Assembly (NCBI GenBank): GCA_018695135.1
Contig: JABHOV010000059.1
Location: 12,133 to 76,132, forward strand
DNA length: 64,000 nucleotides
Source: Candidatus Melainabacteria bacterium
GTDB lineage: Bacteria > Cyanobacteriota > Vampirovibrionia > LMEP-6097
Direction: 5' to 3'
In this document: piece after piece, positions 9,921-58,682 of the stretch
Position numbering within the stretch: the first letter of the stretch is position 1
How the letters are laid out: the number at the start of each line of letters is the position of its first letter
Translations under genes and position numbers: made by a program
Notes under the pieces: model-generated
What the model saw: only the letters and a program-made list of their open reading frames with translations
Database searches by the model: none
Told to the model about the DNA's origin: nothing

Positions 9921-10808
9921 ATGCAGCTTCAGGATCTCAATTTATCAGAGCTTACGAAAGTAGCGATTCACAAAAGTGTGTCAGAAGAACTTATTTTTGA
10001 TGCCAATGTTTCTGTAGCTTTGTTTCAATTAGGCGAGCCGCCAATGACCTATTATCATCTGCATGGCGCAGAGAATTATCATCCTGCTAGTTTAATTAAA
10101 TTATTTCAAGCTTACTTGGCTAAATACAAAATCCAAAGCAATGTTGTAGATTTTGCCAGAGAAAAAATAGCCGAAACAGATTCTTTTGCATCATCTAATC
10201 ATATGGAGGATGTTTACCAGGCAATCGAGGCAAGTCTCAAAGACTCTGATAATGATGCTTTGAGTTATTTAGTGGACTACAATAGTGGTGTTTGTTCAGG
10301 TCCCCGGCTTGACGAAGAGGATTTTGCTATTTTTAAAGAAGCGCGCGGCGAGCTTAGTGAGTTTTTTCACGGACGAGGTTATAGCAAGAGCCTCAATATT
10401 CCAGGCAAGTGTTTTAGTTTTGCACCTTACGGTAGAGAGACTCAATTGAGCTTGGAGACAGGCGGGCTTGGAACTAATAGCATCAGTGTTCAAGATGTTG
10501 TACAAATTATGTACGCAATCAAAGTTGATTTCCCTGAATTATTAGAATCATTGAGGCGAGATATTGATGACACGGAAGATGAGCAAGTGCAGTTTATTGC
10601 AACTGGTTTGCGCTGCTACAGTGATCAAATTGAGGCTTACTATTCCAAGGCAGGTTGGACTTCGAGGGTTAGGCATGACGTGGCTTATATCAAGGTTAGA
10701 ACAGGCGAAGAATATATTTTGGCAATCATGACTAAGAATTTAAGTGAGTGTACTGATTTGATTCCCGAGATTGCAGAGTGGGTTATAGGATCTTTGTTTA
10801 AAGATTAA
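9921..10808 (+). CDS. Serine hydrolase, class A beta-lactamase-like
   Basis: SLIK (SxxK), SDN and KAGW(KTG-like) elements in expected order. Confidence 0.5.
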   Translation: MQLQDLNLSELTKVAIHKSVSEELIFDANVSVALFQLGEPPMTYYHLHGAENYHPASLIKLFQAYLAKYKIQSNVVDFAREKIAETDSFASSNHMEDVYQAIEASLKDSDNDALSYLVDYNSGVCSGPRLDEEDFAIFKEARGELSEFFHGRGYSKSLNIPGKCFSFAPYGRETQLSLETGGLGTNSISVQDVVQIMYAIKVDFPELLESLRRDIDDTEDEQVQFIATGLRCYSDQIEAYYSKAGWTSRVRHDVAYIKVRTGEEYILAIMTKNLSECTDLIPEIAEWVIGSLFKD

Positions 10809-10862: not shown

Positions 10863-11285
10863 TTAATCTTTGCCATCAATACTAAATTTGCCAGCACCAT
10901 GAGTTAGCAAGACGGAGAGCATTATAAAGTAGTAAAAAGGAATTTCAAAACCGTTAGCACTTGCAGCAAAACCGTTTTTAAAATGCACAACAAAGATTGC
11001 AACGAGCATTGTTACCATTAGTGGTAGCGCAAAGAATCTGGTTTTGAGGCCAAGCACTAAGGCAATTACACCAAGAGATTCTGCTCCTGTTGCCATAACC
11101 GCATTGAGATATGGAAATGGTAAGTGAAGACTATGTTCAAACCACATAACGATGTCGTTGAAATGAGTTAGTTTCTTGAGTGCAGGTTCATAAAAGCCAT
11201 AAGCTAGTGTGAAACGCAAAATCAATAAAGAGAGATCAGCAAAAGAGCTAGTAATTCTATTATATAAGGCTATTAAACTGTTCAT
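10863..11285 (-). CDS. DoxX family membrane protein
   Basis: Four TM helices, DoxX-like length and motif layout. Confidence 0.65.
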   Translation of the reverse strand: MNSLIALYNRITSSFADLSLLILRFTLAYGFYEPALKKLTHFNDIVMWFEHSLHLPFPYLNAVMATGAESLGVIALVLGLKTRFFALPLMVTMLVAIFVVHFKNGFAASANGFEIPFYYFIMLSVLLTHGAGKFSIDGKD

Positions 11286-11439
11286 GGCTTAAGCATAAAC
11301 CTGTGAATGATAGCTGTCAAAAACCAATAGGTACATACGTTATATTCTCAGGGAAAGCTTTTTGAACTGATAGTCTGCAAAGGCTTATGGAGAGAGGATG
11401 AATTTAACGGAGCTATTGTTTAATTGCTTAATAGGATTA

Positions 11440-11560
11440 AACCGGTTTTTATTAGAGATCCTGCAAAACTTTGTTTTGCTAGTGATGTCGACACAAAAAA
11501 GTTTGGAACGGTGCGAAGCGCTAGTTCCTGGAGTGAAGAGGATGGGCTTTTTTACAATAA
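11440..11560. repeat. Family 1 structured repeat, intergenic copy (core CCTGCAAAAC-TTT-GTTTTGCTAGTGATGTCGACA..GGAACGGTGCGAAGCGCTAGTTCC)
   Basis: Shares a ~70-nt core with copies at 14545-14665 and 58255-58370. Confidence 0.85.
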
Positions 11561-11899
11561 GTCTAATGAAATGGAGCAAGGCTTTGCCGTCTCCTCGTTT
11601 GAACCGTATTAAAATAAATAAATCCAGTCAAAAACAATATCAATATGTTTTAGGAGAATTTATTTTGCTGAAGACAAAGTATCAGGTTTGGACAAAAGCG
11701 TTAGACAAAAAGATTGAAAAGCCCAAAGAGATTTTTGAAGTTAAGATCTTAGATTAGCTTTATTTAATTTAAATGAGGTAGATGTTTTGCTTTAGTACAA
11801 GGCGCAAGTCGCCTGAAGAACCGGAGTTATGTGAGCCCATAATGAGGATTCTGAAGACGGCGAAGTAACGCAGTAATAAAGTGAAACGGCACCGGAATT

Positions 11900-12943
11900 T
11901 TACCAGTCGTCAATAATGGCACCCTTGGCATACTCAGTTGCTCTTGTCTCAAAGAAATTAGCATGCTCTTTACCATTCACCATAAGGTTGAGCCAAGGTA
12001 GAGGGTTTTCTGCAACGTCATAAATCGGTTCAAGATTTAAATCGCCGAGGCGTTTATTGGCAACATATCTAATATAGAGCTTGACGTCATTTGGACAGAG
12101 TCCCTCTACCGCTCCTAGTGCAAAACAAGTATCAATAAAGTTGTCTTCAAGTAAAACCATTTCATCGCAGGCTTTATAAAGCTCTTGCCTAAATTTTTCA
12201 GTCCAAAGTTCTGGTTTCTCTTTAATAAATTCTCTAAAGAGACTGCATACACCTTCGGAGTGAAGAGACTCATCACGAATTGACCAAGTAATGATTTGCC
12301 CCACGTTTTTGAGTAAGCCGCGACGCGGGAAGTTCATTAGGATTGCAAAACTTGCAAAGAGACTAACTCCTTCCATAAAGCCACCAAAGACAGCAAGGTT
12401 GCGTGCGATGTCTTGATCGTTTTTGATTGAAAAGTTTTGTAGGTATTCGTACTTGTTTTTCATTGCCTCGTATTCACGGAAGGCTTTGTATTCGACTTCT
12501 GGCAAGCCAAGAGTATCATTCAAGTGAGAGTAAGCCCAAACATGAATGGTTTCCATCGCTGCAAAGCTAGTAAGCATCATAGTGATTTCTGGTTTAGGAA
12601 AAACGTGAACTAGTTGTTGGTTGTAATTGTTTTGTACTTCTAGGTCACCTTGAGTGAAGAAGCGCAGTACTTGAATAATCAAGTTGGATTCCTGAGCCGT
12701 TAGTTTAGTTTTGAAGTCAACGATATCATCAGCCATTGGCACCTCAGTTGGTAGCCAGTGCGCTTGTTGTTGTAGTTTGAAGTACTCAAAGCATTGCGGA
12801 TATTCAAAAGGCTTGTAGTAATCTCGGACGGTTAATAGACCAGTGGTTTCACTGCTTTCGTATACGCGGTTTTCTTCAGCTTCAACAGCTTCTGTTGTGT
12901 CTGTTTCAAAATCATCTATTAGTACTTGTGTTTGTGGGCTCAT
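11900..12943 (-). CDS. nrdB: Class I ribonucleotide reductase beta (R2) subunit
   Basis: Di-iron ligand helices (EAIHVWAYSHL, EGV.LFASFAIL..), C-terminal tail. Confidence 0.9.
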   Translation of the reverse strand: MSPQTQVLIDDFETDTTEAVEAEENRVYESSETTGLLTVRDYYKPFEYPQCFEYFKLQQQAHWLPTEVPMADDIVDFKTKLTAQESNLIIQVLRFFTQGDLEVQNNYNQQLVHVFPKPEITMMLTSFAAMETIHVWAYSHLNDTLGLPEVEYKAFREYEAMKNKYEYLQNFSIKNDQDIARNLAVFGGFMEGVSLFASFAILMNFPRRGLLKNVGQIITWSIRDESLHSEGVCSLFREFIKEKPELWTEKFRQELYKACDEMVLLEDNFIDTCFALGAVEGLCPNDVKLYIRYVANKRLGDLNLEPIYDVAENPLPWLNLMVNGKEHANFFETRATEYAKGAIIDDW

Positions 12944-13769: not shown

Positions 13770-14987
13770 ATGGATAGAAATGGACAAAGATTGGACAATG
13801 TCATCAGCCTTGATCTAAAGCTACAAGGTTTGATTAGTTCTAAATTAAAAAACATTGATCAGTTTAATCTAACTTGGTCAGAATTCGAGTTGAAGGAATC
13901 ACAAGAGTTTTTGCGTGAACTTAAAGAGCTTTCTACTATTCAGAGTATTGGTTCTTCTACGAGAATTGAGGGTTCTAAATTACAAGATGATGAAATTAAA
14001 ACCTTGATCGATAATTTAGATATTAATAAGCTTAAGTCGCGTGATGAAGAGGAAGTGAGCGGCTATTATGAAGCTCTTGATTTGATCTACGAAAATCATG
14101 AGAATTTATTTTTGAGTGAATCATATATAAAGCAATTGCATGCAATTTCGCTTAAGTATAGTTCAAAGGATACTCGCCACCGAGGAGATTATAAATCATT
14201 GTCTAATAAAGTGGTTGCTCAGTATCCTGATGGAAGTTCCAGGGTCGTTTTTGATACTACTGAGCCATACCTAGTGGCAAAAGAGATGACTGATTTGATT
14301 GATTGGTCTAATGAAAGACTTTCATATTCTGGGATTCATTCCTTGATGGTGATAGCTGTTTTTGTTTATGAGTTTCTTTCTATTCACCCTTTTCAAGATG
14401 GCAATGGCCGTTTGTCTCGCTTACTGACCAACTTGTTAATGATGAAGTCAGGTTATAAGTTTGTTCAATATATTTCTTTTGAGCATGTGATTGAACAAAG
14501 AAAAAAAGAATACTATCAAAATCTAATGGAGGCTCAGTCTCAGCGGTTTACGAGACACCCTGCAAAACATGGTTTTGCTAGTGATGTCGACATAAATAAG
14601 GTCGGAACTGTGCGAAGCGCCAGTTCCGCTAATGAAGAGGCGGAGGGCTTTCATGTGAACTGTGCCGCAAGGGAAGATCTTGGCATGTGGATGGTATATT
14701 TCTTAGATTGTGTTGAAAACCTAATCTCAAAACTTAAAACTAAGTTGCACACAAATGATGATCATTGTTTAGATGATTCTGGAGTAAATTTAAGTTCAAC
14801 TCAGAAACAAATCTACACTTTGATCAGCACGAATAAGTCTAGTAAAGTTGAGGATCTGATGAAAGTTTTTCCTGAGATAACGAGACCGACTATTAAATAT
14901 AGTTTGTCGAGGCTTGTTGAGCTTGGTTTAATCAGTCGCCATGGAAGAGGGCGAGGGACTTGGTACCAGACCGCTAAAGCTTACTAA
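13770..14987 (+). CDS. Fic family protein (AMPylase/Doc-like) with N-terminal inhibitory motif STRIEG and C-terminal winged HTH; carries in-frame family-1 repeat
   Basis: HPFQDGNGRLSRLL Fic motif; (S/T)xxxE(G/N) motif near the N-terminus. Confidence 0.85.
   Translation: MDRNGQRLDNVISLDLKLQGLISSKLKNIDQFNLTWSEFELKESQEFLRELKELSTIQSIGSSTRIEGSKLQDDEIKTLIDNLDINKLKSRDEEEVSGYYEALDLIYENHENLFLSESYIKQLHAISLKYSSKDTRHRGDYKSLSNKVVAQYPDGSSRVVFDTTEPYLVAKEMTDLIDWSNERLSYSGIHSLMVIAVFVYEFLSIHPFQDGNGRLSRLLTNLLMMKSGYKFVQYISFEHVIEQRKKEYYQNLMEAQSQRFTRHPAKHGFASDVDINKVGTVRSASSANEEAEGFHVNCAAREDLGMWMVYFLDCVENLISKLKTKLHTNDDHCLDDSGVNLSSTQKQIYTLISTNKSSKVEDLMKVFPEITRPTIKYSLSRLVELGLISRHGRGRGTWYQTAKAY
14545..14665. repeat. 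Family 1 structured repeat inserted in frame in the Fic ORF (encodes ..RHPAKHGFASDVDINKVGTVRSASSANEEAEGF..)
   Basis: Nucleotide identity to copies at 11460-11528 and 58266-58345. Confidence 0.85.
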
Positions 14988-16284: not shown

Positions 16285-16307
16285 TGTGCTGTTTTAATTA
16301 TACCCAT

Positions 16308-16397
16308 TGGGGTCGTATCCTGACATTGGACATTTCTACGGGTTAGGTATTATCACCTTGTTATTAGTTCAAAATGTCCAATGTCAGGATACGACCC
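16308..16397. repeat. Family 2 palindromic element: 26-bp arms GGGTCGTATCCTGACATTGGACATTT / reverse complement around a ~36-nt unique loop
   Basis: Exact inverted repeat; same arms at 47237-47325 and 54184-54276. Confidence 0.9.
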
Positions 16398-16451
16398 TGA
16401 TGGGTCATATGGACTATCTAGATATCCCAGTTAAAGCCGATTAACTATTAT

Positions 16452-27300: not shown

Positions 27301-28146
27301 TTGATCCGAGGGACTATACTTAATAGTACTTTGTTTAGGTATTTTGGGTTGATTTTGTTTTTGAGTTTGGCATCTGTCCAGGCTAAGCCATATTTGCCTG
27401 CTGATACTGAAGTGCTGGCACAAATCAATTCTTCTAAGAAGCTCAAGAAACTTAATGCAAGTTTGAAACAGGATCCAAACAATATTGATTTGGCTTATTT
27501 GCTTGCAAAGCAATATATTGCATTAGGCAAGGCCCAGGGGGACCCTCGTTACTATAGTTACGCTACGGCGAGCTTGGCTCCTTGGGCTAAGCAGAAAAAA
27601 AGTCCTCCGAGTATTAAATTATTGCTTGCTGATATAAAACAATATCAACACCGATTTAATGAAGCTTTGGAATTATTGGATGCGATTTTATTAGCGGAGT
27701 CAAATTATCAAGAAGCAATTTTGATGCGTGCTGCAATTTATACTGAGCTTGGTAAGTATTCGCGTTCTGATGATGACTGCCGCCAGCTTAAAGACCGTAG
27801 TCTTGAAACAACTTGTTTGGCTTTGAATAAGTTCCACAATGGCTATCCAGCAGAGGCTTATGATGATCTGCGGGACTTGAGTTTTGGTGATGATCAAGCT
27901 AGTCTTTGGTCACTTACTATCCTAGCTGAAATCACGGCACGCTTGGCAAAAACTGTAGAGGCTGAACGATATTATCAACAAGCACTTGCGATTAATAATA
28001 GTGATATTTATTTGCTTGGATCCTATGCTGATTTTCTTTTGGATCAAGCAGAGAATCAAGCGGTGATTGATTTACTGGAAGGGATGGAAGAGGTAGAGAG
28101 TTTGGCTTTGCGTTATAGGATGGCTCAAGGGGTGAATCATGATTAG
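27301..28146 (+). CDS. Secreted TPR-repeat protein
   Basis: Signal peptide; several 34-residue A/Y/L-patterned repeats. Confidence 0.65.
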   Translation: MIRGTILNSTLFRYFGLILFLSLASVQAKPYLPADTEVLAQINSSKKLKKLNASLKQDPNNIDLAYLLAKQYIALGKAQGDPRYYSYATASLAPWAKQKKSPPSIKLLLADIKQYQHRFNEALELLDAILLAESNYQEAILMRAAIYTELGKYSRSDDDCRQLKDRSLETTCLALNKFHNGYPAEAYDDLRDLSFGDDQASLWSLTILAEITARLAKTVEAERYYQQALAINNSDIYLLGSYADFLLDQAENQAVIDLLEGMEEVESLALRYRMAQGVNHD

Positions 28147-29374
28147 TTTAGTACTGGACTTCCTGCGCAAGTTTCGTTTTGCAGGATGTCTGCTGTTCTT
28201 GGTTTTGTTTGTGCTACCGGCGCAAGCACATAAGCCAAGCGAAAGTTTTTTGAAAATCCAAGCTGCTAGTCAAGCAATAACTATTGAGTGGGATGTTGCA
28301 ATTAGAGATTTGGATTATTTGATTGATTTGGATCTGAATAATGATTCTGAGATTAGTGGATTTGAATTTAAAAATCAAGAACAGAAGATCAGAGACTATT
28401 TGTTTTCACAAATTAAACTAGAGGCTTTTTCGAAGCCTGAATCAGTAGCTGCTCATCATCATGCGCATAGTCATGTTCATTCGTCTTCAGCTCATCACCA
28501 CGCGACTGGCTTGAAGAAATGGATAGGAGCTTATTGTAAGAGATCAGAGCAAGTTGACTTGTTGGTAGAAAAACATAGTGAGCTTAGTTATGTTGTTTTA
28601 TTGTTTGATTATCAATGTAGGCTTGAGCTTGATAAATTAAGCGTCGATTATAATTTACTGTTTGATGCTGACCCCGAACATAGGGCTTTAGTGAGTTTGG
28701 ATTATGACGGCAAGGTTCAAAGCTATGCCTTGACCAAAGATCAGCGGTATTTTAAAGCGAAGCTAGGCAATGTTGATTATAAATATCAGTTCTTGAATTT
28801 CTTAGATCAGGGGAAATGGCATATTTGGACTGGTTATGATCATATATTGTTTTTGCTTGCACTTTTATTGCCAGCTGTATTCGTTACAGGTAAAGGGAAG
28901 AAGAGAGAAGTAACTTTGAAATCAGTTTTTTGGACTGTTGTAAAAATAGTTACAGCATTTACAGTTGCACATTCCATTACTCTGTCTCTGGCAGCTTTAG
29001 AGATTGTTGAAGTTAATTCTCGCTTGGTTGAAATTTTAATTGCTTTGTCTGTTGCCTTCAGCGCTTTATTGAATTTAGTCCCTCGATCCCTTTTCTCTCT
29101 TCCCGTTACCCTTCTCCCTTTTTGTTTTGGTTTAATTCATGGCTTCGGTTTTGCTGGAGCTTTGCAAGATATTGGCTTGCCCTTGAAGGCTTTATTAGTT
29201 TCTTTGTTTAGCTTTAATCTTGGAGTGGAGCTTGGGCAGCTTGCAATTGTCGCTTGCTTTGTACCCATTGCCTATTGGCTTAGAGACACCTGGTTCTATC
29301 AGGTTATTGTTTTTAGGCTTGGTTCGCTTGCTATATTTGTGATGGCGATGTGGTGGTTTTTTGAGCGGTTATAG
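28139..29374 (+). CDS. HupE/UreJ-family membrane protein with periplasmic His-rich segment (AAHHHAHSHVHSSSAHHHATG)
   Basis: C-terminal TM region with HGFGFAG motif; signal peptide; overlaps upstream TPR gene. Confidence 0.6.
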   Translation: MISLVLDFLRKFRFAGCLLFLVLFVLPAQAHKPSESFLKIQAASQAITIEWDVAIRDLDYLIDLDLNNDSEISGFEFKNQEQKIRDYLFSQIKLEAFSKPESVAAHHHAHSHVHSSSAHHHATGLKKWIGAYCKRSEQVDLLVEKHSELSYVVLLFDYQCRLELDKLSVDYNLLFDADPEHRALVSLDYDGKVQSYALTKDQRYFKAKLGNVDYKYQFLNFLDQGKWHIWTGYDHILFLLALLLPAVFVTGKGKKREVTLKSVFWTVVKIVTAFTVAHSITLSLAALEIVEVNSRLVEILIALSVAFSALLNLVPRSLFSLPVTLLPFCFGLIHGFGFAGALQDIGLPLKALLVSLFSFNLGVELGQLAIVACFVPIAYWLRDTWFYQVIVFRLGSLAIFVMAMWWFFERL

Positions 29375-34380: not shown

Positions 34381-34445
34381 GATTTTTGACATCCTTATTG
34401 ACGGCTCAGTCAACTCCGGTGTCAAAAATCTCCTCAGCCTTGTCT
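34381..34445. repeat. Family 5 repeat with nested inverted repeat GATTTTTGACA..TGTCAAAAATC
   Basis: Core ATTGACGGCTCAGTCAACTC shared with 58027-58046. Confidence 0.65.
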
Positions 34446-34472
34446 TTGAGAAAATTATCACCATCGCTTAGT

Positions 34473-35663
34473 ATGCTACTTCAATCTTCTTATTACTGTT
34501 TTCTCGCTTTCATCGCGTCAAGCTTTTTTAGTCCGACAGCTAGAACTATTTTCTTAGTTGCTGGATTGCTTTTGTGGGCTATTGCGTCGTGGCGAGAGCC
34601 AACAACATTTGCGTCAATCCAAGCTGGTCTTAGTAAGGACTTACAAGTATTAAACAGGCTGTTCATTATATATATTTGTGTCAATTCTGTTCTTGCGTAT
34701 ATGCATGACTTGAGTATTTTTGCCTGGATCAAAACATTGCTGGGTACTTATGCTCAATGGTTTTGGGCACTTGCTTTATTGGCTGGTCTCAAGTTTGATT
34801 TTCAAAACAAAATCAGGTTAACTGTAATTGGAGTATCATCATTTACTAGTGTGCTGATCGTGTTGCAGCTGATTGGTTTAGTACCGATGGTTGGAGATTA
34901 TTATGGAGTTTTGTCTCAGGCTTTTACTAGTTCTGGGATGATTTTGGTTGGTTTGTTTTTGAGCTTGGCTCAGTTTAAATCTATTCCTTCTACTAATAGA
35001 CTTACTGAGAAAGCCCCCTTTACTAATGGAACTAGTGCGCCGCACCGTTCCGACAATTACCGCTTTGCTTTTGGACTAGCCTCTTTTGTGCAACTGATCG
35101 CATTATTCGCTCTAGGACAGCGTTCTGTCTGGGCAGGTTTGATTTTGTCTCTATTGTTTTATTTGATTATGACTAAGCAATATCTCAAAAAGAGTTTTTG
35201 GCTTGCCTTGGTTCTTTTGATACTAACTGGCAGTTTTGTGATTTCAAGTTCTGAGCGTGTCGGTCGTAAAGTTGAGCGTTTTGCAAATCCTCATTATTGG
35301 ACTCAGGCTAACAGTATTAAAGTCAGACAAGAACTGTGGCAGATTAATAAAGAGGCGTGGCAAGCTAAGCCATTGACCGGAATTAATGAAATCATTAAGC
35401 ATGAGGGATTGAGGCATGCACACAATATTTATTTCCAGCAACTTTATACTGGTGGCTGGCTTAGATTTATTGCTTGGTTGAGTTTTTATTTAGTCGCGGG
35501 ATTCTTTTTGTTTCGTCGAATTACAACAGCGCCTGAGTTTTTTGCTATCTATATTGCGCTGAGTGCAGAAGGAGTTTTGGAGAATTGGTGGGGAGATAGC
35601 GAGGTTCTGAGCTTGTTTTTAGTGGCTTTGATATTGGGATTGGGGAAGAAATATAAGGAATAG
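34473..35663 (+). CDS. O-antigen ligase (WaaL/Wzy_C) family membrane protein; start moved past the repeat
   Basis: ~10 TM helices and AHNIYFQQL motif in periplasmic loop. Confidence 0.5.
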   Translation: MLLQSSYYCFLAFIASSFFSPTARTIFLVAGLLLWAIASWREPTTFASIQAGLSKDLQVLNRLFIIYICVNSVLAYMHDLSIFAWIKTLLGTYAQWFWALALLAGLKFDFQNKIRLTVIGVSSFTSVLIVLQLIGLVPMVGDYYGVLSQAFTSSGMILVGLFLSLAQFKSIPSTNRLTEKAPFTNGTSAPHRSDNYRFAFGLASFVQLIALFALGQRSVWAGLILSLLFYLIMTKQYLKKSFWLALVLLILTGSFVISSSERVGRKVERFANPHYWTQANSIKVRQELWQINKEAWQAKPLTGINEIIKHEGLRHAHNIYFQQLYTGGWLRFIAWLSFYLVAGFFLFRRITTAPEFFAIYIALSAEGVLENWWGDSEVLSLFLVALILGLGKKYKE

Positions 35664-38376: not shown

Positions 38377-39414
38377 ATGCGTTACCTCTGCTTGATTCTA
38401 TTATTGTTTAGCTCTTCTGCTTGTTCTAAAAAAGCTGCCCCGGTTGCTGCCGTAAAACCATTATTTGTCAAAGCAGAAGCTGCAACTACCGGTGATATAG
38501 AGCGTGCCTTTGAAACGGCTGGTGAACTGAAAGCGGATAAAGAGATTTTGGTTGCAGCTGAGCGGCCGGGGATGGTCAAAGAGATTTATGTGCGTGAAGG
38601 ACAATGGGTTAAGGCAGGTCAGGCTTTGATTCAAATAGAGGGTAAGGATGTTGATGCTGATTTAAAAAAAGCACAAAGTGATTTTGCTTCTTACCAAAAC
38701 CTGTTTGATCAGGGAGCTATTTCTAAACAAGAACTAATTAATTATGAAGCTCAACTGCGTAGAGTCGAGTCACAGATTGATAATCTCCAGATTAATGCAA
38801 TTAGTTCTGGATTTATTGGGGTGATATATGTTGATCCTGGTGACTATGTTAAACGAGGTGATAAGATTCTGGATTTGGTTAAGATTTATCCATTGAGAGT
38901 GAGTTATTCGGTGCCAGAGAAATTGATCTCCAAAATTTTAATTGGACAAAGCGTAGAACTACGTACTGACTCAGAAGCTGGCAAGGTTTTTAATGCAAGT
39001 GTTGATTTTATTTCACCAAGAGTTGATCCTAATACTAGAGCGGTTTTAGTTCGCGGGAAAATCAATAGCCCAAGTACTAATCTCAAAGCTAATCAGTTTG
39101 TTACTGTCAAACAAGTTATTAATAGTTCTAATACGACTTTATTGGTGAGAGAAGAAGCGCTCTATCTTAATCAAGGACAGGAGTATTTGTATCTCGCGTC
39201 GTCATTGCGAGCCGAGGCGAAGCAAGCTAATGTAGAGACTCCGGAGATCGACGCGTCTGATGAACTTGTAGCCAAACGTGTAGCTGTAAAAACCGGTCAG
39301 AGACAAGAAGGCATGGTAGAAATTTTAGAAGGTATTGAAGCTGGTGACAATGTGATCTATGCTGGTTTGCATAGTATTTATCCTGGGGCTAAGTTGGTTT
39401 TGGTTAGTGACTAA
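38377..39414 (+). CDS. RND efflux periplasmic adaptor (membrane fusion protein), lipoprotein; contains family-3 repeat fragment
   Basis: Lipobox SSSAC, coiled-coil hairpin, lipoyl and beta-barrel segments. Confidence 0.8.
   Translation: MRYLCLILLLFSSSACSKKAAPVAAVKPLFVKAEAATTGDIERAFETAGELKADKEILVAAERPGMVKEIYVREGQWVKAGQALIQIEGKDVDADLKKAQSDFASYQNLFDQGAISKQELINYEAQLRRVESQIDNLQINAISSGFIGVIYVDPGDYVKRGDKILDLVKIYPLRVSYSVPEKLISKILIGQSVELRTDSEAGKVFNASVDFISPRVDPNTRAVLVRGKINSPSTNLKANQFVTVKQVINSSNTTLLVREEALYLNQGQEYLYLASSLRAEAKQANVETPEIDASDELVAKRVAVKTGQRQEGMVEILEGIEAGDNVIYAGLHSIYPGAKLVLVSD
39193..39260. repeat. Family 3 repeat fragment inside adaptor ORF (..TCGCGTCGTCATTGCGAGCCGAGGCGAAGCAAGCTAATG..CGACGCG)
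   Basis: Left arm near-identical to 51136-51167. Confidence 0.75.
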
Positions 39415-45661: not shown

Positions 45662-47236
45662 ATGTCTAATTTTCGTTATCGCAGCATACAAATACTCATT
45701 GCTTTAGCATTTCTTGCTATCTTGGGACGTTTATTTCAATTTCAAATTCTTAATGGGCAAAAATATTCTGCTTACATTAAGCGCTATGGACAGACCTACA
45801 AAATTAGTCCTGCAAGAGCAGAGATTGTTGATCGTAACGACAAAGTACTTGCTTTGGATTTGATGAAATATACACTTGAATATAATCCCGTGACTACTAG
45901 TGAGGATAGAGGCATGCTTGCTTTCAAACTAGAGCAAATGATTGATTTGAAAGATCCAGAAGATCTCAATGCTAGTTATAGTAAGACTCTTGCGCATGGT
46001 TTGAGTCGCGAACAGGCAAACAAAATTAGGAAGCTTGATTCCAAATTATTATACTTGCGTCAAGTTAGGCGCAGATTTTATCCACAAGATGAGCTGGCTT
46101 CTCATGTGCTTGGCTATGTTGATCTTTATGGACAAGCAAGGCAAGGTATTGAAGCTGACTATCAAAAGAGATTAGAAGAAGACTCAGAGAACAAGCTTAG
46201 ATTGAGCTTGGATTCTCGCTTGCAAGTTTTTGCCGAAACAGAATTAAAGAAGCGAATTGCTGAAACGAAGGCGGCAAGAGGGACTGTTTTGTTAATGGAA
46301 GTTGCTACTGGACAAATGATGGCAATGGCTACTAGCCCAGGATTCAATCCTAATAACTATTTTGATTTTAGTTTGTCACAAATTAAAAACTGGCCTTTGG
46401 TTGATGTCTATCAACCGGGTTCTATTTTTAAGATAGTGACAGTGGCATCTGCCCTAGAGTCTGGGACTATAGATTTGAGTCATCGTTTTGTAGATGAAGG
46501 CTTTTTGGAGATTGATAAATGGAAAATCAAAAATCATGAATACAAACTAGGTAAGACTGAGGCTGAGGAATTGAATCTGCAAAACTTGTTTGAACGATCA
46601 AGTAATACTTTTGCTGCACATCTGGCACTAGCAATGGGTCCTAAGGTTTTTCATGATCAGATTAGCAAGTTTGGCTTTGGGCAAAAAACGGGGATCGAAT
46701 TAAGTGGGGAGTCCAAGGGTATTTTGCTTAAGCACAAAAAATGGCGTAAGTCCGATACTGCAACTACAGGCATGGGTCATGGTGCCATTTCTGTTACTCC
46801 GTTACAGTTGCTGGCAGCAGCTAATGTCATTGCCAATGACGGTCATTGGGCTAGACCGACTTTGTTTCTTGATTCTAAACAGCCGTTGGCTGAAGAGCTT
46901 GAACCAATTATCAGTGCTGAGCATGCTTATAGTATTAGAAATCTTTTGGCAAGAGCCATTGATCACAATTTGAAATTCAAATCTAGCGTGGCTGGACGTG
47001 TTGATAATTTGACGATAGCTGGTAAAACTGGCACAGCAGAGAAAATCAAAGCAGGTGGAGGCTACTCCAAAAAAGAAACAGTCGCTTCTTTCTTAGGTTT
47101 CTTCCCGGCTTATAATCCAAAATATATCGCCTTAGTTGTAATTGATGATCCCAAGACTGATGGTCGTTGGGGTGATACTGTGGCTGGACCTTTGTTTAAC
47201 AAGATTGCTGCTTACACTAGAGACTTGTATTTATAA
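45662..47236 (+). CDS. Penicillin-binding protein, FtsI/PBP2-type transpeptidase
   Basis: N-terminal TM anchor, SIFK (SxxK), KTGTAE. Confidence 0.85.
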   Translation: MSNFRYRSIQILIALAFLAILGRLFQFQILNGQKYSAYIKRYGQTYKISPARAEIVDRNDKVLALDLMKYTLEYNPVTTSEDRGMLAFKLEQMIDLKDPEDLNASYSKTLAHGLSREQANKIRKLDSKLLYLRQVRRRFYPQDELASHVLGYVDLYGQARQGIEADYQKRLEEDSENKLRLSLDSRLQVFAETELKKRIAETKAARGTVLLMEVATGQMMAMATSPGFNPNNYFDFSLSQIKNWPLVDVYQPGSIFKIVTVASALESGTIDLSHRFVDEGFLEIDKWKIKNHEYKLGKTEAEELNLQNLFERSSNTFAAHLALAMGPKVFHDQISKFGFGQKTGIELSGESKGILLKHKKWRKSDTATTGMGHGAISVTPLQLLAAANVIANDGHWARPTLFLDSKQPLAEELEPIISAEHAYSIRNLLARAIDHNLKFKSSVAGRVDNLTIAGKTGTAEKIKAGGGYSKKETVASFLGFFPAYNPKYIALVVIDDPKTDGRWGDTVAGPLFNKIAAYTRDLYL

Positions 47237-47325
47237 GGGTCGTATCCTGTCATCTGACATTTCAATGTATTACAAACGATCTTAATTAGTGATACACTGA
47301 AATGTCAGATGACAGGATACGACCC
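47237..47325. repeat. Family 2 palindromic element, variant arms GGGTCGTATCCTGTCATCTGACATTT with three compensatory changes in the partner arm
   Basis: Both arms read in sequence. Confidence 0.9.
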
Positions 47326-47871
47326 TGTTTGGCGCAGGAAATCTTCATGTGCATTTTTATTGGTGTAGTTGGTAACGCGCAAATAAGCTGACCAAGGTAT
47401 TTGATTTTCGCTTGCAACTTTGGCTATACCGTAGAGCTCCATGTTTTCTATAATTGCGTCTGTTTGATAATGTTTAATAATTTGTTTGGAGATAGTCTCG
47501 TCTTGAGTGATTTCAAGACTTGAGAGGCATAAAATATTCTTTGAATCTGGATGACTGGCGTGAAGAATAGGATAAATATCTTTGATAGTGTAGCTAAGTC
47601 CTTGAACTGATCCGAGATTTAAAAGAGCTGCAGCACTAACTATGATTTGCTCGCCAATCTTGATATTTTGGCTATAGGCACCGGCTGTGCCAGTAAAGAT
47701 GATTTCGGAGATATCGTTTCTTGATTGAAGTAGTTTAGAGAGATTGACAGCTGCTTCAAGATAGCCAATGCCAAGTACCTCTAAAATATGGGTTTTACTG
47801 GTTAAATAGGGCAAATCCGCTGGATTCTCTGCTAGTTCGTTTTTGCAGGCTGCGCAAATAAGGCTTGTCAT
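47305..47871 (-). CDS. PNP/MTAN-family nucleosidase, possible futalosine hydrolase MqnB
   Basis: Short 188-aa MTAN-like layout (..IIFTGTAGAY..). Confidence 0.55.
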   Translation of the reverse strand: MTSLICAACKNELAENPADLPYLTSKTHILEVLGIGYLEAAVNLSKLLQSRNDISEIIFTGTAGAYSQNIKIGEQIIVSAAALLNLGSVQGLSYTIKDIYPILHASHPDSKNILCLSSLEITQDETISKQIIKHYQTDAIIENMELYGIAKVASENQIPWSAYLRVTNYTNKNAHEDFLRQTGSYPVI

Positions 47872-49189: not shown

Positions 49190-50052
49190 CCTACTTGATT
49201 GAAGCTGATGACTTGGTTGCAACAGTGCCTGGGACTTTGACATTGAAAGATTTGGATAGTGATTTAATTCAACAGTGTTTAATTTCTACTTTGCTTGCTC
49301 CAGCTCATTATACAATTGCACAAATCTTGGCAGAGGATTGGGGACATGACGCTAGGCAGGTTCTGGGACTTGGTTTGAAACATGCCAGTGGCTTGCATAC
49401 CAAAACCGGCGGCAAGGTAATCAAAAATGTATCTGGTTATGATTTGAGTAAAATATATTTAGGTAGTTGCGAATCCTTGGCAAAGATTGAAACAGCAAGT
49501 TTGCGTTTGGAGAAACTACCATTATTGATTTGTGAATTGAGCTTGAAGCTTGAACGAGAACTTGATCTTGACTTGATTGTTTTTTTGCACAAAATAGCGA
49601 CGATGGATTTTGATGAGAGTTTTGATGTGGAATTAAATATGCTCGGTGAGATCAAGTTGAGTTTTACTGCCACAAGTAAAGAACTCATGGCTTTGAAACA
49701 AGCTCGCTTGGCTAGAAGGCTAGAAGGTTTTTGGGATCATGAACTTAGTTTGGATTTTGTGGTACAGCCTTATAAAAAACAATACCCCAGTACTGATTTA
49801 AGGATTGAAATTCATGGAGTTTTGACGACTTTGCTCAATACCGCAAAGTCATTAGGGCAGCCTTGTCAGATCTACCCCAAGAGAGGCTATCTACTGTTAG
49901 AGTCTTCTGTCCAGAATTTAAAAAAGCTAGATGATTGTTACTACTATGTTTATCCCAAGACCGATGAAAACAAAAAACTAGAAACCCAGTTGAACGATAC
50001 TGATAACGCAGAGTTGGATTTATTCAAACAACTCCAAAAGGATTTTGCTTAA
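49186..50052 (+). CDS. GlcE-like FAD-binding subunit lacking the N-terminal part of the FAD_binding_4 domain
   Basis: KTGGKVIKNVSGYDLSKIYLGS motif of glycolate oxidase GlcE; starts where GlcE homologs are ~90 aa in. Confidence 0.55.
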   Translation: MTYLIEADDLVATVPGTLTLKDLDSDLIQQCLISTLLAPAHYTIAQILAEDWGHDARQVLGLGLKHASGLHTKTGGKVIKNVSGYDLSKIYLGSCESLAKIETASLRLEKLPLLICELSLKLERELDLDLIVFLHKIATMDFDESFDVELNMLGEIKLSFTATSKELMALKQARLARRLEGFWDHELSLDFVVQPYKKQYPSTDLRIEIHGVLTTLLNTAKSLGQPCQIYPKRGYLLLESSVQNLKKLDDCYYYVYPKTDENKKLETQLNDTDNAELDLFKQLQKDFA

Positions 50053-51344
50053 TGGACGCAGCGACGATTAATGAAACGATTAAGGCTTGTATTCATTGCG
50101 GTATCTGCCTGCCAGCCTGCCCGACTTATCAGGTAACAGGTAATGAAGGACATTCGCCGCGTGGAAGATTGTACTTAATTAATGATCTCTTGACTAATGA
50201 GACTGGAGCCAGGGAAGATGTCGTTGAGTATTTGGATGGCTGCCTTGAATGCTCCGCCTGTGAAACGGTCTGTCCATCAGGTGTTGACTATGTCAATATT
50301 CTTGAATATGCTCGCCATGAATTGGGTCTGAGCAATTACACTAAGGGCTTTATGGCTGCTGTTAGACGCCTGGTGTTCCAGTATTTATTGCCGAATAGAG
50401 TCTTGTTGAATCTGGCAAGAGTGATGGGGCGTTTTTTGCCTTTGCGGTTATTCAATAAGCTAGCGCCGGGTTTTGATTTTGAATACAAAAAAATCAAGAC
50501 GGATTATATTTATAAATCTCAAAGTCGGACTTCGCGGACAGTCTCCATGCCACTGGGTTGTGTAATGGATACGATTTATAATGATGTGCATTGGGATAGT
50601 ATTCAAGTACTCAACGCTTTTGGTTATGATGTCTATATACCTGAAACTCAGTGCTGCGGTGCTCTTGCTTATCATAGTGGTGAAAACAAACTTGGTGAAA
50701 AACAGCTTGAGGAAACCACGTCGATACTAGCTAAGCATCAGTATCCAGTAGTAATGAACTCAGCGGGTTGTGGGGCTTTTATTAAAAATCATTCTGATTT
50801 AGAATCGATGGATTTAATTGAGGCTTTGAAACAAGCACCGTCATTGCGAGGAGCAGACGCGGCGCGGCAATCTAACGCAGGGGACTGGATTGCCACGCAC
50901 TCTTTGAGTGCTCGCAATGATGAAATAATTTATGCCGTTTACCACCCTGCCTGTCATCTCAATCATAAGCAAGGAGTCTCGCAAGACTATGTTGAATTGT
51001 TGAAAAGAATCCCAAGTTTGGAATTAATACCACTACATGAAGCAGACCTTTGTTGCGGCTCGGCTGGATTTTATAATTTAATTCAAAGCAAGCTTGCTGG
51101 TGAGATTGGTAAACGTAAGGCAGAGAATATTACATCGTCATTGCGAGCGTTAGCGAAGCAATCTAATGCAAGATCCAAGGGCGCGGCAATTAAATTCTCT
51201 GTATTAGATTGCTTCGCTAACGCTCGCAATGACGTGATTGTACTTACTGCAAATCCCGGTTGCATGTCTCAAATCCAAGCTCACTTGGGTGATGAATATC
51301 AAGTTATGCATCCTATTAGTTTGATTAAGCAATACTTGAATTAG
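50052..51344 (+). CDS. glcF: Glycolate oxidase iron-sulfur subunit GlcF-like with two in-frame family-3 repeat insertions
   Basis: Two CxxCxxCxxxCP ferredoxin motifs, two CCG domains. Confidence 0.8.
   Translation: MDAATINETIKACIHCGICLPACPTYQVTGNEGHSPRGRLYLINDLLTNETGAREDVVEYLDGCLECSACETVCPSGVDYVNILEYARHELGLSNYTKGFMAAVRRLVFQYLLPNRVLLNLARVMGRFLPLRLFNKLAPGFDFEYKKIKTDYIYKSQSRTSRTVSMPLGCVMDTIYNDVHWDSIQVLNAFGYDVYIPETQCCGALAYHSGENKLGEKQLEETTSILAKHQYPVVMNSAGCGAFIKNHSDLESMDLIEALKQAPSLRGADAARQSNAGDWIATHSLSARNDEIIYAVYHPACHLNHKQGVSQDYVELLKRIPSLELIPLHEADLCCGSAGFYNLIQSKLAGEIGKRKAENITSSLRALAKQSNARSKGAAIKFSVLDCFANARNDVIVLTANPGCMSQIQAHLGDEYQVMHPISLIKQYLN
50839..50922. repeat. Family 3 palindromic repeat, copy inside GlcF (CGTCATTGCGAG..CTCGCAATGATG)
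   Basis: Arms CATTGCGAG/CTCGCAATG with nested GGCAATC/GATTGCC. Confidence 0.8.
51136..51234. repeat. Family 3 palindromic repeat, full copy: 32-bp perfect arms CGTCATTGCGAGCGTTAGCGAAGCAATCTAAT / ATTAGATTGCTTCGCTAACGCTCGCAATGACG
   Basis: Read in sequence; in frame in GlcF. Confidence 0.9.
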
Positions 51345-52692
51345 TCGTTTGACAAAAACTCCTAGCCACCTTAGCTATATTACCCGCTCCCACTATAAAT
51401 AAATAATCGCAGTCTTGTAAATGTCCGTCTTCTCTCTCGTTTTCGCTCCGCTTCGACGCGATGAAACTTTCAATACCAGGTCTCAGAGCAGCTACCATAT
51501 CAGCATGATTACCTTGGCTAGTAGCTCTTGTATCTATCGGTGCTAAGAACTGCACATTGGTTTTATTAATTGCAGCAACCAGTGAAGCCGAATCAACACC
51601 ATTGATATGCTGACTACGAGCTACATAAATATCAGCAATCAAACAAAGATGCGGTTCAGGAAATTCTTTGAAGACTTCTATAAAATCATTCCAAAATTGT
51701 TGAGTACGTTCTGGGTGATGTGGTTGATATACAAAAACTAGTCGTTTGGGATTGAGGCTTAGAACTCCTTCTAACAGTGCTCGCAGTTCGGTGGGGTGGT
51801 GGGCGTAGTCATCATATACACGAATGCCGTTATAGTCTGAATTGATCAGTTCAAAACGGCGCTTGATGCCATTAAAAGATTGAAGAGCTTTAATTGCAGC
51901 TTCTGTGTTAAGCCCTAGTGCCTCTGCTGCTTTGATGCAACCCAATGCATTGAGCTTATTGTATTCACCTGGCATTGTTAATTGAATGTCGTAGTCATTT
52001 AATTCAGAACTTGAATATCTAATCAAAGTCTTTCCACTCGATTGCTTCGCTTCGCTCGCAATGACGTATTCCTTGAGTAACGCATCATCCATATTAACAA
52101 CAGCAATTTCTGCACTATCAAGAAATTTATAAAAACAATCACGAATCTCATTCAGTCCACCAGGATAGTTCTCAAGATGGTCTTCTTCAATACAAGTAAC
52201 CAAGGCTAGATATGGATTGGTAATGGTAAAGCTCTTGTCGCTTTCGTCACCCTCGAGCACAAAATACTCTCCAGAACCTGCTTTGGCATTACTCTGATAA
52301 TTCGATAGAATTCCACCTACTGCAAAACTAGGATCAAAACCAGTCTCAACTAAAATATGTGCAAGCATCGCTGAGCAAGTGGTTTTGCCATGAGTGCCCG
52401 AGATGACAATTTGTTTGTGTCCTTGAGATAAATAATTCAGCATATCTCTGCGGTGCCAAACAGGCAAGCTGCGAGATTTGAGTTCGAGGTAATCAGCATC
52501 ACCGATACCAATTGCAGTACTGCGCACTACTAAGTCAATATCATTATCGAGTGGATCATTCTCTGTGTAACTTAAATCACTTTTAGAAATTTTGACCTCT
52601 GGTTTTTGCTGAGCAAGGATTTTAACCAGTGCAGACATACCGATGCCTTCGGCACCTAAAAATCTTGCATGTTTAAATCTCTCTTGAGACAT
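51325..52692 (-). CDS. murC: UDP-N-acetylmuramate--L-alanine ligase with two family-3 repeat fragments in frame
   Basis: ISGTHGKTTCSAML, DDYAHHPTE, C-terminal VGAGNIAK. Confidence 0.85.
   Translation of the reverse strand: MSQERFKHARFLGAEGIGMSALVKILAQQKPEVKISKSDLSYTENDPLDNDIDLVVRSTAIGIGDADYLELKSRSLPVWHRRDMLNYLSQGHKQIVISGTHGKTTCSAMLAHILVETGFDPSFAVGGILSNYQSNAKAGSGEYFVLEGDESDKSFTITNPYLALVTCIEEDHLENYPGGLNEIRDCFYKFLDSAEIAVVNMDDALLKEYVIASEAKQSSGKTLIRYSSSELNDYDIQLTMPGEYNKLNALGCIKAAEALGLNTEAAIKALQSFNGIKRRFELINSDYNGIRVYDDYAHHPTELRALLEGVLSLNPKRLVFVYQPHHPERTQQFWNDFIEVFKEFPEPHLCLIADIYVARSQHINGVDSASLVAAINKTNVQFLAPIDTRATSQGNHADMVAALRPGIESFIASKRSENEREDGHLQDCDYLFIVGAGNIAKVARSFCQTTNSSIA
51425..51464. repeat. 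Family 3-related fragment inside murC 3' region
   Basis: Reverse complement TCATCGCGTCGAAGCGGAGCGAAAACGAG. Confidence 0.55.
52039..52066. repeat. Family 3 right-arm fragment inside murC (CGATTGCTTCGCTTCGCTCGCAATGACG)
   Basis: Near-identical to 51207-51234. Confidence 0.75.
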
Positions 52693-53893: not shown

Positions 53894-54160
53894 CTAAGCA
53901 GTAAGAGCTTTAATCTTGGCGGCTAATCTAGATTTGTATCTAGCAGCGGCATTGAGATGAATAACTTTGCGTTTAACGGCTCTATCAATTCTTGAAAACG
54001 CTTCTGGCAATTTTGCAAGAGCTTCTTCACCATTAGCAGCTTCTATTGCTTGACGAACAGCTCTAATGGCCGTACGCATACTTGATCTAACAGTGGCGTT
54101 ATTGATTCTGTTGCGTTCTGCTGTTTTTACTCTTTTCTTTGCTGATTTTATGTTTGGCAT
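53894..54160 (-). CDS. rpsT: 30S ribosomal protein S20
   Basis: MPNIKSAKKRVKTAERNR..AAARYKSRLA. Confidence 0.9.
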   Translation of the reverse strand: MPNIKSAKKRVKTAERNRINNATVRSSMRTAIRAVRQAIEAANGEEALAKLPEAFSRIDRAVKRKVIHLNAAARYKSRLAAKIKALTA

Positions 54161-54183
54161 AGTGAAAAAGATTGTATCACATA

Positions 54184-54276
54184 GGGTCGTATCCTGACAT
54201 TGGACATTTGCTACACTATATATTATCCGCTGGGCAAAGTTATTTAACTAAAATGTCCAATGTCAGGATACGACCC
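54184..54276. repeat. Family 2 palindromic element, third copy
   Basis: Same 26-bp arms as 16308-16397. Confidence 0.9.
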
Positions 54277-54280
54277 TACT

Positions 54281-58109: not shown

Positions 58110-58682
58110 ATGAAAGTACGAAAACTAACAACAGATTACTTCAACCAAGTACATGATCTGATCAAGTTTTATTCTGAGCGTCGTTTGATGTTGCCACTTA
58201 GTCTTGATGAGCTTTATCATAGAGCGCAGGCTTATCGAATTATTGTAGGGGACAGCGATAGACATCCTGCAAAACAAGGTTTTGCTAGTGATGTCGCCAC
58301 AAAAGAGGTCGGAATCATGCGGAGCATGTGTTCCGCTAAGGGAAATGAGTTAGACCTTGGCAAGAAGCCTATGGGGACAGTCCTTGCTTGCGCTCATCTC
58401 GATATTTTTACACCACAACTCGCTGAAATCAAAAGCCTTGCTGTTATTGAAACGGAGCATGGTAAAGGCTATGGTAAGACTTTAGTCATGGATTGTGAGC
58501 AAGATGCCAAGGCTATTGGTATCAAGAAGCTTTTTGTCTTAACTTACCAACAGGATTTTTTTACTAAGCTCGGTTACCAGGTTGTTGATCGTAATACTTT
58601 GCCTGAGAAGGTCTATAAAGAATGCATCAAATGTAGCTATTTCGATGATTGTAATGAAATTGCGATGGTTAAGAGCCTCTAG
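58110..58682 (+). CDS. GNAT family N-acetyltransferase with in-frame family-1 repeat
   Basis: Acetyl-CoA binding ..EHGKGYGKTLV.. motif A. Confidence 0.75.
   Translation: MKVRKLTTDYFNQVHDLIKFYSERRLMLPLSLDELYHRAQAYRIIVGDSDRHPAKQGFASDVATKEVGIMRSMCSAKGNELDLGKKPMGTVLACAHLDIFTPQLAEIKSLAVIETEHGKGYGKTLVMDCEQDAKAIGIKKLFVLTYQQDFFTKLGYQVVDRNTLPEKVYKECIKCSYFDDCNEIAMVKSL
58255..58370. repeat. Family 1 structured repeat inserted in frame in GNAT ORF (encodes ..DRHPAKQGFASDVATKEVGIMRSMCSAKGNELDLGKKPMG..)
   Basis: Core CCTGCAAAAC-AAG-GTTTTGCTAGTGATGTCGCCACAAAAGAGGTCGGAATCATGCGGAGCATGTGTTCC. Confidence 0.85.

Follow-up and report, generated by a model that had tools for sequence, protein, structure and literature searches.

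A probable frame-preserving miniature transposon in conserved genes of an uncultured Melainabacteria member

The nrdB-doxX locus and the copies in the window

The DNA analyzed here (the window; 64,000 nt of a Candidatus Melainabacteria contig, G+C 39.6%) belongs to the Melainabacteria/Caenarcaniphilales lineage. It carries nrdB on the minus strand (11900-12943) and, on the plus strand at 11398-11757, a small, conserved ORF of unknown function. Relatives keep the gene order CNNM-(Fic)-MerC-NrdB-small ORF-DoxX-beta-lactamase-like. The window NrdB is also present on ENA and Logan metagenome contigs, and the organism is represented in samples ERZ24794639 and ERR13319378. Among the GTDB species representatives its nearest counterpart is found in genome L005 (90% identity), with some twenty more at 75-89%, and these relatives are MAGs labelled Melainabacteria, Caenarcaniphilales or Vampirovibrionia, or deposited as ‘uncultured Gammaproteobacteria’. 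The beta-lactamase-like gene (9921-10808) is only 90% identical to its counterpart in L001/L002, with neighbouring genes at 99-100%, a pattern suggestive of local divergence within the population.

Copy 1 of a 109-bp element is located inside the small ORF at 11455-11563 (plus strand), 336 nt past the nrdB stop and in opposite orientation to nrdB, and agrees with the family consensus at 87 of 109 positions. It is preceded by TATTA (11450-11454) and followed by a degenerate duplicate of this target, TAATG (11564-11568). The 69-mer quoted in a first-pass annotation of the locus was found on the plus strand at 11460-11528 with 0 mismatches, where chance predicts no match. The host gene encodes 119 aa. 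Its homologues, identified by position in L005, L006, L008, L070 and L122 and joined by two database proteins, are 73-85 aa long, and those with an examined gene context occupy the same nrdB-doxX position. Aligned with the window protein, each of the seven shows a gap of exactly 38 residues between ...NRFL(x)(x) and W(S/T)..., and translation of copy 1 in element frame +0, duplicated target counted in, yields the 38 added residues ILQNFVLLVMSTQKSLERCEALVPGVKRMGFFTISLMK. Over a conserved 27-codon block the small ORF and its L005 homologue differ by 14 synonymous and 7 non-synonymous codon changes, and codon positions 1, 2 and 3 differ 7, 4 and 18 times, respectively. Because the homologues are conserved and the substitution pattern is that of protein-coding DNA, 11398-11757 is, as judged from sequence, a protein-coding gene in which copy 1 forms an in-frame insertion of 38 codons. 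The first-pass annotation had placed copy 1 in intergenic DNA with no coding constraint, which is wrong given its position in an ORF with seven homologues that lack the 38 residues. The element is absent from the nrdB loci of all 77 relatives despite the conserved synteny.

Repeat finding returned three copies in the window (11448-11541, 14547-14640 and 58254-58347), in line with the number given previously; the full copies 2 and 3 extend over 14554-14662 and 58261-58369, both on the plus strand. The earlier description of the copies as nearly identical was overstated: in the quoted 69 nt copy 1 is 88% identical to copy 2 and 78% to copy 3, values that fall to 75% and 67% when all 109 nt are compared. 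The downstream box said to be common to copies 1 and 2 does recur (GTGAAGAGGATGGGCTTTT versus ATGAAGAGGCGGAGGGCTTTC). Copy 2 is inserted in-frame (frame +2, HPAKHGFASDV...) in a Fic-domain gene (13770-14987), and copy 3, also in frame +2, lies in a GNAT acetyltransferase gene (58110-58682) at a turn between two beta strands. The reading frame used in copy 1, EILQNFVLLVMSTQK... (ILQNFVLLVMSTQK...), is unlike that of copies 2 and 3 (HPAKxGFASDV...). An HMM built from the three full copies recovered an additional degenerate copy on the minus strand at approximately 34984-35113. This copy 4 (34999-35101) is old, with a clear 3' half and a 6-nt deletion, and is read antisense in frame -2 (KAPFTNGTSAPHRSD) within a Wzy_C-like membrane-protein gene (34386-35663). 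Finally, a 34-nt mini-copy on the minus strand (28157-28190) is reduced to the two terminal repeats, GACATCCTGCAAAAC-GAA-ACTTGCGCAGGAAGTC, with flanks CA..CA. It covers codons 7-18, in the N-terminal hydrophobic region of a HupE/UreJ-type gene (28139-29374), and together with one flanking CA it measures 36 nt, i.e. 12 codons. All window copies (three full, one degenerate, one mini) are thus intragenic.

Comparison with related genomes, which the first-pass annotation had proposed as a check, was positive, with empty sites in relatives (L005, L122 and L123 among them) for three of the host genes, the small ORF, Fic and GNAT. Filled and empty sites were compared in codon-aware alignments, as a plain MAFFT DNA alignment misplaced the gap. 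Syntenic empty sites at the nucleotide level were found in L122 and L123, the one in the small ORF in L122. In L005 the Fic orthologue (64% identical) is 38 codons short where copy 2 is inserted in the window. The GNAT homologues P0018-P0023 (150-152 aa) are without the insert present in the 190-aa window protein; here the difference amounts to 40 alignment columns and not 38, because the loop length varies too. The insert is present in the GNAT homologues P0015 and P0016. In the GNAT orthologue P0017 (176 aa) both insert ends are kept and 17 internal residues are gone in-frame, an illustration of the way in which old insertions decay while the host gene stays unbroken. An AlphaFold2 model of the window GNAT protein, of low confidence (mean pLDDT 53; insert 25-33), hints at a disordered loop for the insert.

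Ends, target duplication and hairpins

The element is exactly 109 bp long in 24 of 29 copies and carries no transposase gene. Its boundaries are sharp, with similarity starting at GACATCCTGCAAAAC and stopping at GCAGGAAGTC, and it ends in imperfect terminal inverted repeats of approximately 10 nt (5'-GACATCCTGC ... GCAGGAAGTC-3') that match at 9 of 10 positions in the consensus and at 12 of 14 in the copies L082b and L082c. Direct repeats flanking the 29 copies indicate an AT-rich target duplication of 5 bp with the consensus TAWTA. The flanking 5 nt agree at 88 of 145 positions as compared to 79.4 +/- 3.0 in shuffled pairings (2 of 2000 shuffles reach the observed value), the signal is seen in register 5 only, and the variable middle base is concordant in 17 of 29 copies. 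In all three full window copies the duplication is degenerate (e.g. TATTA/TAATG). Element and duplication add up to 114 bp (109 + 5), i.e. the 38 codons found in excess in the small gene and in Fic, and with the duplicated target counted, the earlier estimate of an element of at least 110 nt holds. A duplication of 5 bp is therefore supported by the family statistics and by the codon arithmetic of the empty sites.

A 2-bp TA duplication, giving a net gain of 111 bp or 37 codons, was also considered. On that model the small gene, with the insertion subtracted, would still exceed each of its seven homologues by one codon. The model was rejected because 38 codons rather than 37 are missing from the small-gene homologues (7 of 7) and from the Fic orthologue, and because the direct repeats are significant only at 5 bp.

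A parent insertion sequence would be expected to end in GACATCCTGCAA.../...GCAGGAAGTC. A regular-expression search of the window and 125 retrieved loci for a complete insertion sequence with the terminal repeats at its ends returned none.

Two hairpins are formed within the element. In hairpin 1 (11455-11489 in copy 1) the 5' terminal repeat GAGATCCTGCAAAAC pairs, across a 3-nt loop, with an internal inverted copy, GTTTTGCTAGTGATGTC, over 15 pairs; 99% of the cells are paired, an invariance that is partly forced because the metagenome copies were picked by an exact 22-base pattern. Hairpin 2 (11505-11528; GGAACGGTGC-GAA-GCGCTAGTTCC, 9 pairs) shows compensatory changes on both sides at 4 of its 9 pairs, which none of 500 shuffles reached, and in L082b and L082c its sequence differs yet the hairpin still forms. 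The fold z-scores of copy 1 (-1.9 and -1.7) are unremarkable.

The two hairpin loops differ in what they hold. The loop of hairpin 1 (alignment columns 18-20; window 11470-11472, 14569-14571 and 58276-58278) is hypervariable, with 15 different triplets in 29 copies beside an element that is otherwise about 90% conserved. It may mutate at a high rate when extruded, or nested insertions may have left this footprint. Exactly in the loop of hairpin 2, three contigs carry an extra insert of approximately 72 nt with its own hairpin (GGGTCTCTTGAGACCC), giving composite elements at L084 1486-1670, L090 324-513 and L094 2196-2392. These represent at least two different genomic loci, and one composite is read through in-frame in P0012; a stand-alone occurrence of the nested insert was not seen in the sequences collected.

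Distribution of the family and use of reading frames

About 30 distinct copies, which align gap-free, were gathered from the window, one NCBI MAG and 39 JGI metagenome contigs. The JGI copies were found with the exact 22-base pattern; the NCBI assembly GCA_027618255.1 (L082), with three copies within 20 kb, was reached by a peptide-profile search. The 23-base core had no exact match in 185,579 species-representative (GTDB) genomes, and an exact-pattern scan of viral contigs gave no copies of the element. The empty genome and viral scans mean either that the family is narrow or that it has diverged elsewhere. An exhaustive search recovered the frame +2 peptide in only 14 of 1.84 billion representative proteins, for which reason we regard the family as narrow; a word-indexed protein search with the insert peptide returned a single protein. 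No description of such elements in Melainabacteria was found in the literature. The element represents a new family of a kind already known and not a new kind of element.

The consensus is free of stop codons in four of six frames, a value reached by 0.25% of shuffles, and the copies use each of the four open frames and either orientation. Of those with enough flanking sequence, roughly one third are internal to long ORFs, one third are located at ORF termini and one third are intergenic. Metagenome genes with an internal in-frame copy include murI (glutamate racemase), pgi (phosphoglucose isomerase), tsaE and a VTC-domain gene. The Pfam matches of the host genes stop at the insert or resume around it. 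One copy is situated 5' of the methylase domain in a SpoU methylase gene, the true start of which is possibly downstream of the copy, and some of the other ‘N-terminal’ intragenic cases may really be upstream of the true start codon.

Antisense translation of the element in frame -0 gives a hydrophobic peptide, LLTELVLCTVPTFFVSTSLAK..FAGCL, which lies at the very N-terminal end of several ORFs (L083, L109 and L121; window 28139-29374) whose products appear to be exported or membrane proteins. Either a signal or transmembrane segment is supplied or extended in these cases, or the ORF has been over-called through a stop-free element in the 5' UTR.

A probable frame-preserving transposon and its alternatives

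The element is small, bears terminal inverted repeats and a target duplication, and occurs in dispersed copies whose presence or absence differs between relatives. We therefore consider copy 1 very probably a copy of a non-autonomous miniature transposon (MITE) of 109 bp with terminal inverted repeats, two hairpins and a 5-bp target duplication. The suggestion that the repeat had been mobilised is supported by the dispersed copies, sharp boundaries, terminal inverted repeats and duplicated target. Mobilisation would be provided in trans by the DDE-type transposase of another insertion sequence, and the hairpins would matter as DNA or RNA structure in that process rather than in any host function. 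Because 114 bp equal 38 codons and four of six frames lack stops, an insertion into a gene would keep the frame, add a segment of 38 residues and not end the protein. For the same reason, insertions would persist where they land in loops or near protein termini, provided that such inserts are tolerated at the protein level, as we infer. Copy 1 would accordingly represent an insertion in the conserved small gene between nrdB and doxX and is predicted to be translated as part of it.

It is improbable that the same selfish element was moved by a hairpin-directed single-strand route, i.e. REP/RAYT-like or by an IS200/IS605-like tyrosine (HUH) transposase. A 5' subterminal hairpin of 15 bp that is strictly conserved, the second, covarying hairpin and the failure to find a parent insertion sequence with matching inverted repeats in the sequences collected would all suit such a route, as would the precise nesting of a second small element in the loop of hairpin 2 on three contigs, which suggests structure-directed insertion in this genome. 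IS200/IS605 and REP elements, however, are not known to leave a target duplication, whereas a 5-bp duplication is supported here and is required for the empty sites of 38 codons. The element also differs from REPs in being 109 bp long and often intragenic. REP palindromes are described as 20-40 nt long, extragenic and headed by GTAG or CGTC (PMC3733652); the element starts with GACATCC.

The first-pass annotation had favored a mobilised small RNA gene or transcription-terminator module, with copy 1 as its unconstrained intergenic version. We rate this as highly improbable, even though the element folds into two hairpins and a T-run (GGGCTTTTTT) follows a weak stem in copy 1. That T-run is peculiar to copy 1 and missing from the family consensus (GGGGACTTTCGC), and copy 1 itself lies in sense orientation within the reading frame of a conserved ORF, where a terminator would be harmful. 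Relative to their host genes, the copies point either way, and some lie midway through housekeeping genes, a position at which a terminator would be lethal. A scan of 11200-12000 returned no terminator-like site and, in the element, no promoter-like site, the only one in that region being on the minus strand at 11320-11292, outside the element. No Rfam family reached its gathering score in the window and a relaxed search gave only a chance-level match (E=4.9). The small RNA or terminator reading is unsupported because of the missing terminator site, the missing Rfam match and the unremarkable fold z-scores of copy 1. Hardly credible, too, is a functional peptide module spread by recombination, the DNA repeat being secondary to selection on the protein. 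The frame +2 peptide, RHPAKxxFASDVDTKKVGTV.STSS, is indeed well conserved in unrelated host proteins. Yet a single DNA sequence yields unrelated peptides from four frames and two orientations, and it also occurs between genes in L082; these two facts make a peptide module unlikely. Conservation is moreover seen at the nucleotide level, terminal inverted repeats and target duplication included, the insert has no Pfam match, it decays by in-frame deletion in P0017, and the frame +2 peptide is confined to the 14 representative proteins mentioned above.

The frame-preserving MITE can be compared to several known systems. The closest in behavior are the Rickettsia palindromic elements (RPE; Ogata et al. 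2000, as cited in PMC2229807 and PMC10969869), which are described there as palindromic elements of 105-150 bp with terminal inverted repeats and stop-free frames, several families of which share one genome. The element resembles them in size, in its terminal inverted repeats and stop-free frames, in frequent frame-preserving insertion into conserved protein genes, and in that the agent of mobilisation has not been found. It is not a member of the RPE families. Its host belongs to the Melainabacteria/Caenarcaniphilales and not to Rickettsia, and its sequence is taken to differ on the grounds of host and of the absence of the exact core from the 185,579 genomes rather than by alignment. Four frames and both orientations are used by the element and its 5-bp target duplication is detectable, a feature that for RPE is uncertain in the table of PMC2229807.

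Bacterial MITEs such as ERIC/IRU (127 bp), the 107-bp Correia/NEMIS element and RUP are listed with TA termini (PMC2229807, Table 1). According to the same source they measure approximately 100-130 bp, duplicate their target and have transcripts that fold into stable stem-loops, and ERIC and the 107-bp Correia form possess open frames and occur as in-frame fusions inside genes. The element shares with them its size, terminal inverted repeats, TA at both ends and a duplicated target. They represent different sequence families in different phyla, and two internal hairpins are present here instead of one end-to-end stem. The target duplication of ERIC, Correia and RUP is the TA dinucleotide, whereas our data favor a 5-bp TAWTA duplication. 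RPE-like behavior is also shown, to a lesser extent, by ERIC and the 107-bp Correia form as these are portrayed in PMC2229807 and PMC10969869. Within the broad phylum-level lineage, Nezha, MITEb and MITEe of Anabaena PCC 7120 and the Microcystis MITEs are likewise small and non-autonomous, and some have ORFs or interrupt genes (PMC10969869). They are mainly portrayed there as intergenic or gene-disrupting and, by that description alone, differ from the element, with its frequent frame-preserving insertions.

In-frame selfish palindromes in conserved genes have been regarded as almost peculiar to Rickettsia, apart from scattered ERIC and Correia cases. An unrelated family with the same behavior in an uncultured member of the Melainabacteria suggests that this strategy evolves repeatedly. 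The anatomy of the family is unusually clean, and its defined ends and target duplication make it a tractable case for studying how such elements move and what proteins tolerate. Gene callers and annotators will also misread the copies, calling a repeat in a gene intergenic or extending N-termini through a stop-free element.

The window contains a second palindromic family, unrelated to the first, and in this respect the genome again resembles those with several RPE families. Its element of approximately 104 nt (51135-51238) has perfect 32-nt arms (CGTCATTGCGAGCGTTAGCGAAGCAATCTAAT / ATTAGATTGCTTCGCTAACGCTCGCAATGACG) and lies inside an ORF for a Fer4/CCG-domain protein (50052-51344). Single arms are found at 39196-39232, 50820-50850, 52021-52051 and 53928-53958, one of them inside a HlyD-like gene (38377-39414), and this family may also insert without breaking the frame. 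We consider it possible, though rather unlikely, that the MITEs of this lineage have evolved for compatibility with coding sequence, through increments of exactly 38 codons and four stop-free frames, and that their peptides are sorted by type of host protein; the elements would then repeatedly supply proteins with new segments, signal and transmembrane segments included. Under such sorting the hydrophilic frame +2 peptide may end up in loops of soluble enzymes and the hydrophobic frame -0 peptide at the N-termini of exported or membrane proteins. Taken with the family at 51135-51238 and the nesting in the hairpin loop, an RPE-like mode of life would then have arisen independently outside obligate intracellular bacteria.

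A third repeat family comprises palindromes of approximately 100 nt with 26-nt arms (GGGTCGTATCCTGACATTGGACATTT ... AAATGTCCAATGTCAGGATACGACCC) at 16297-16398, 47224-47326 and 54171-54277, the first of which is located between ORFs.
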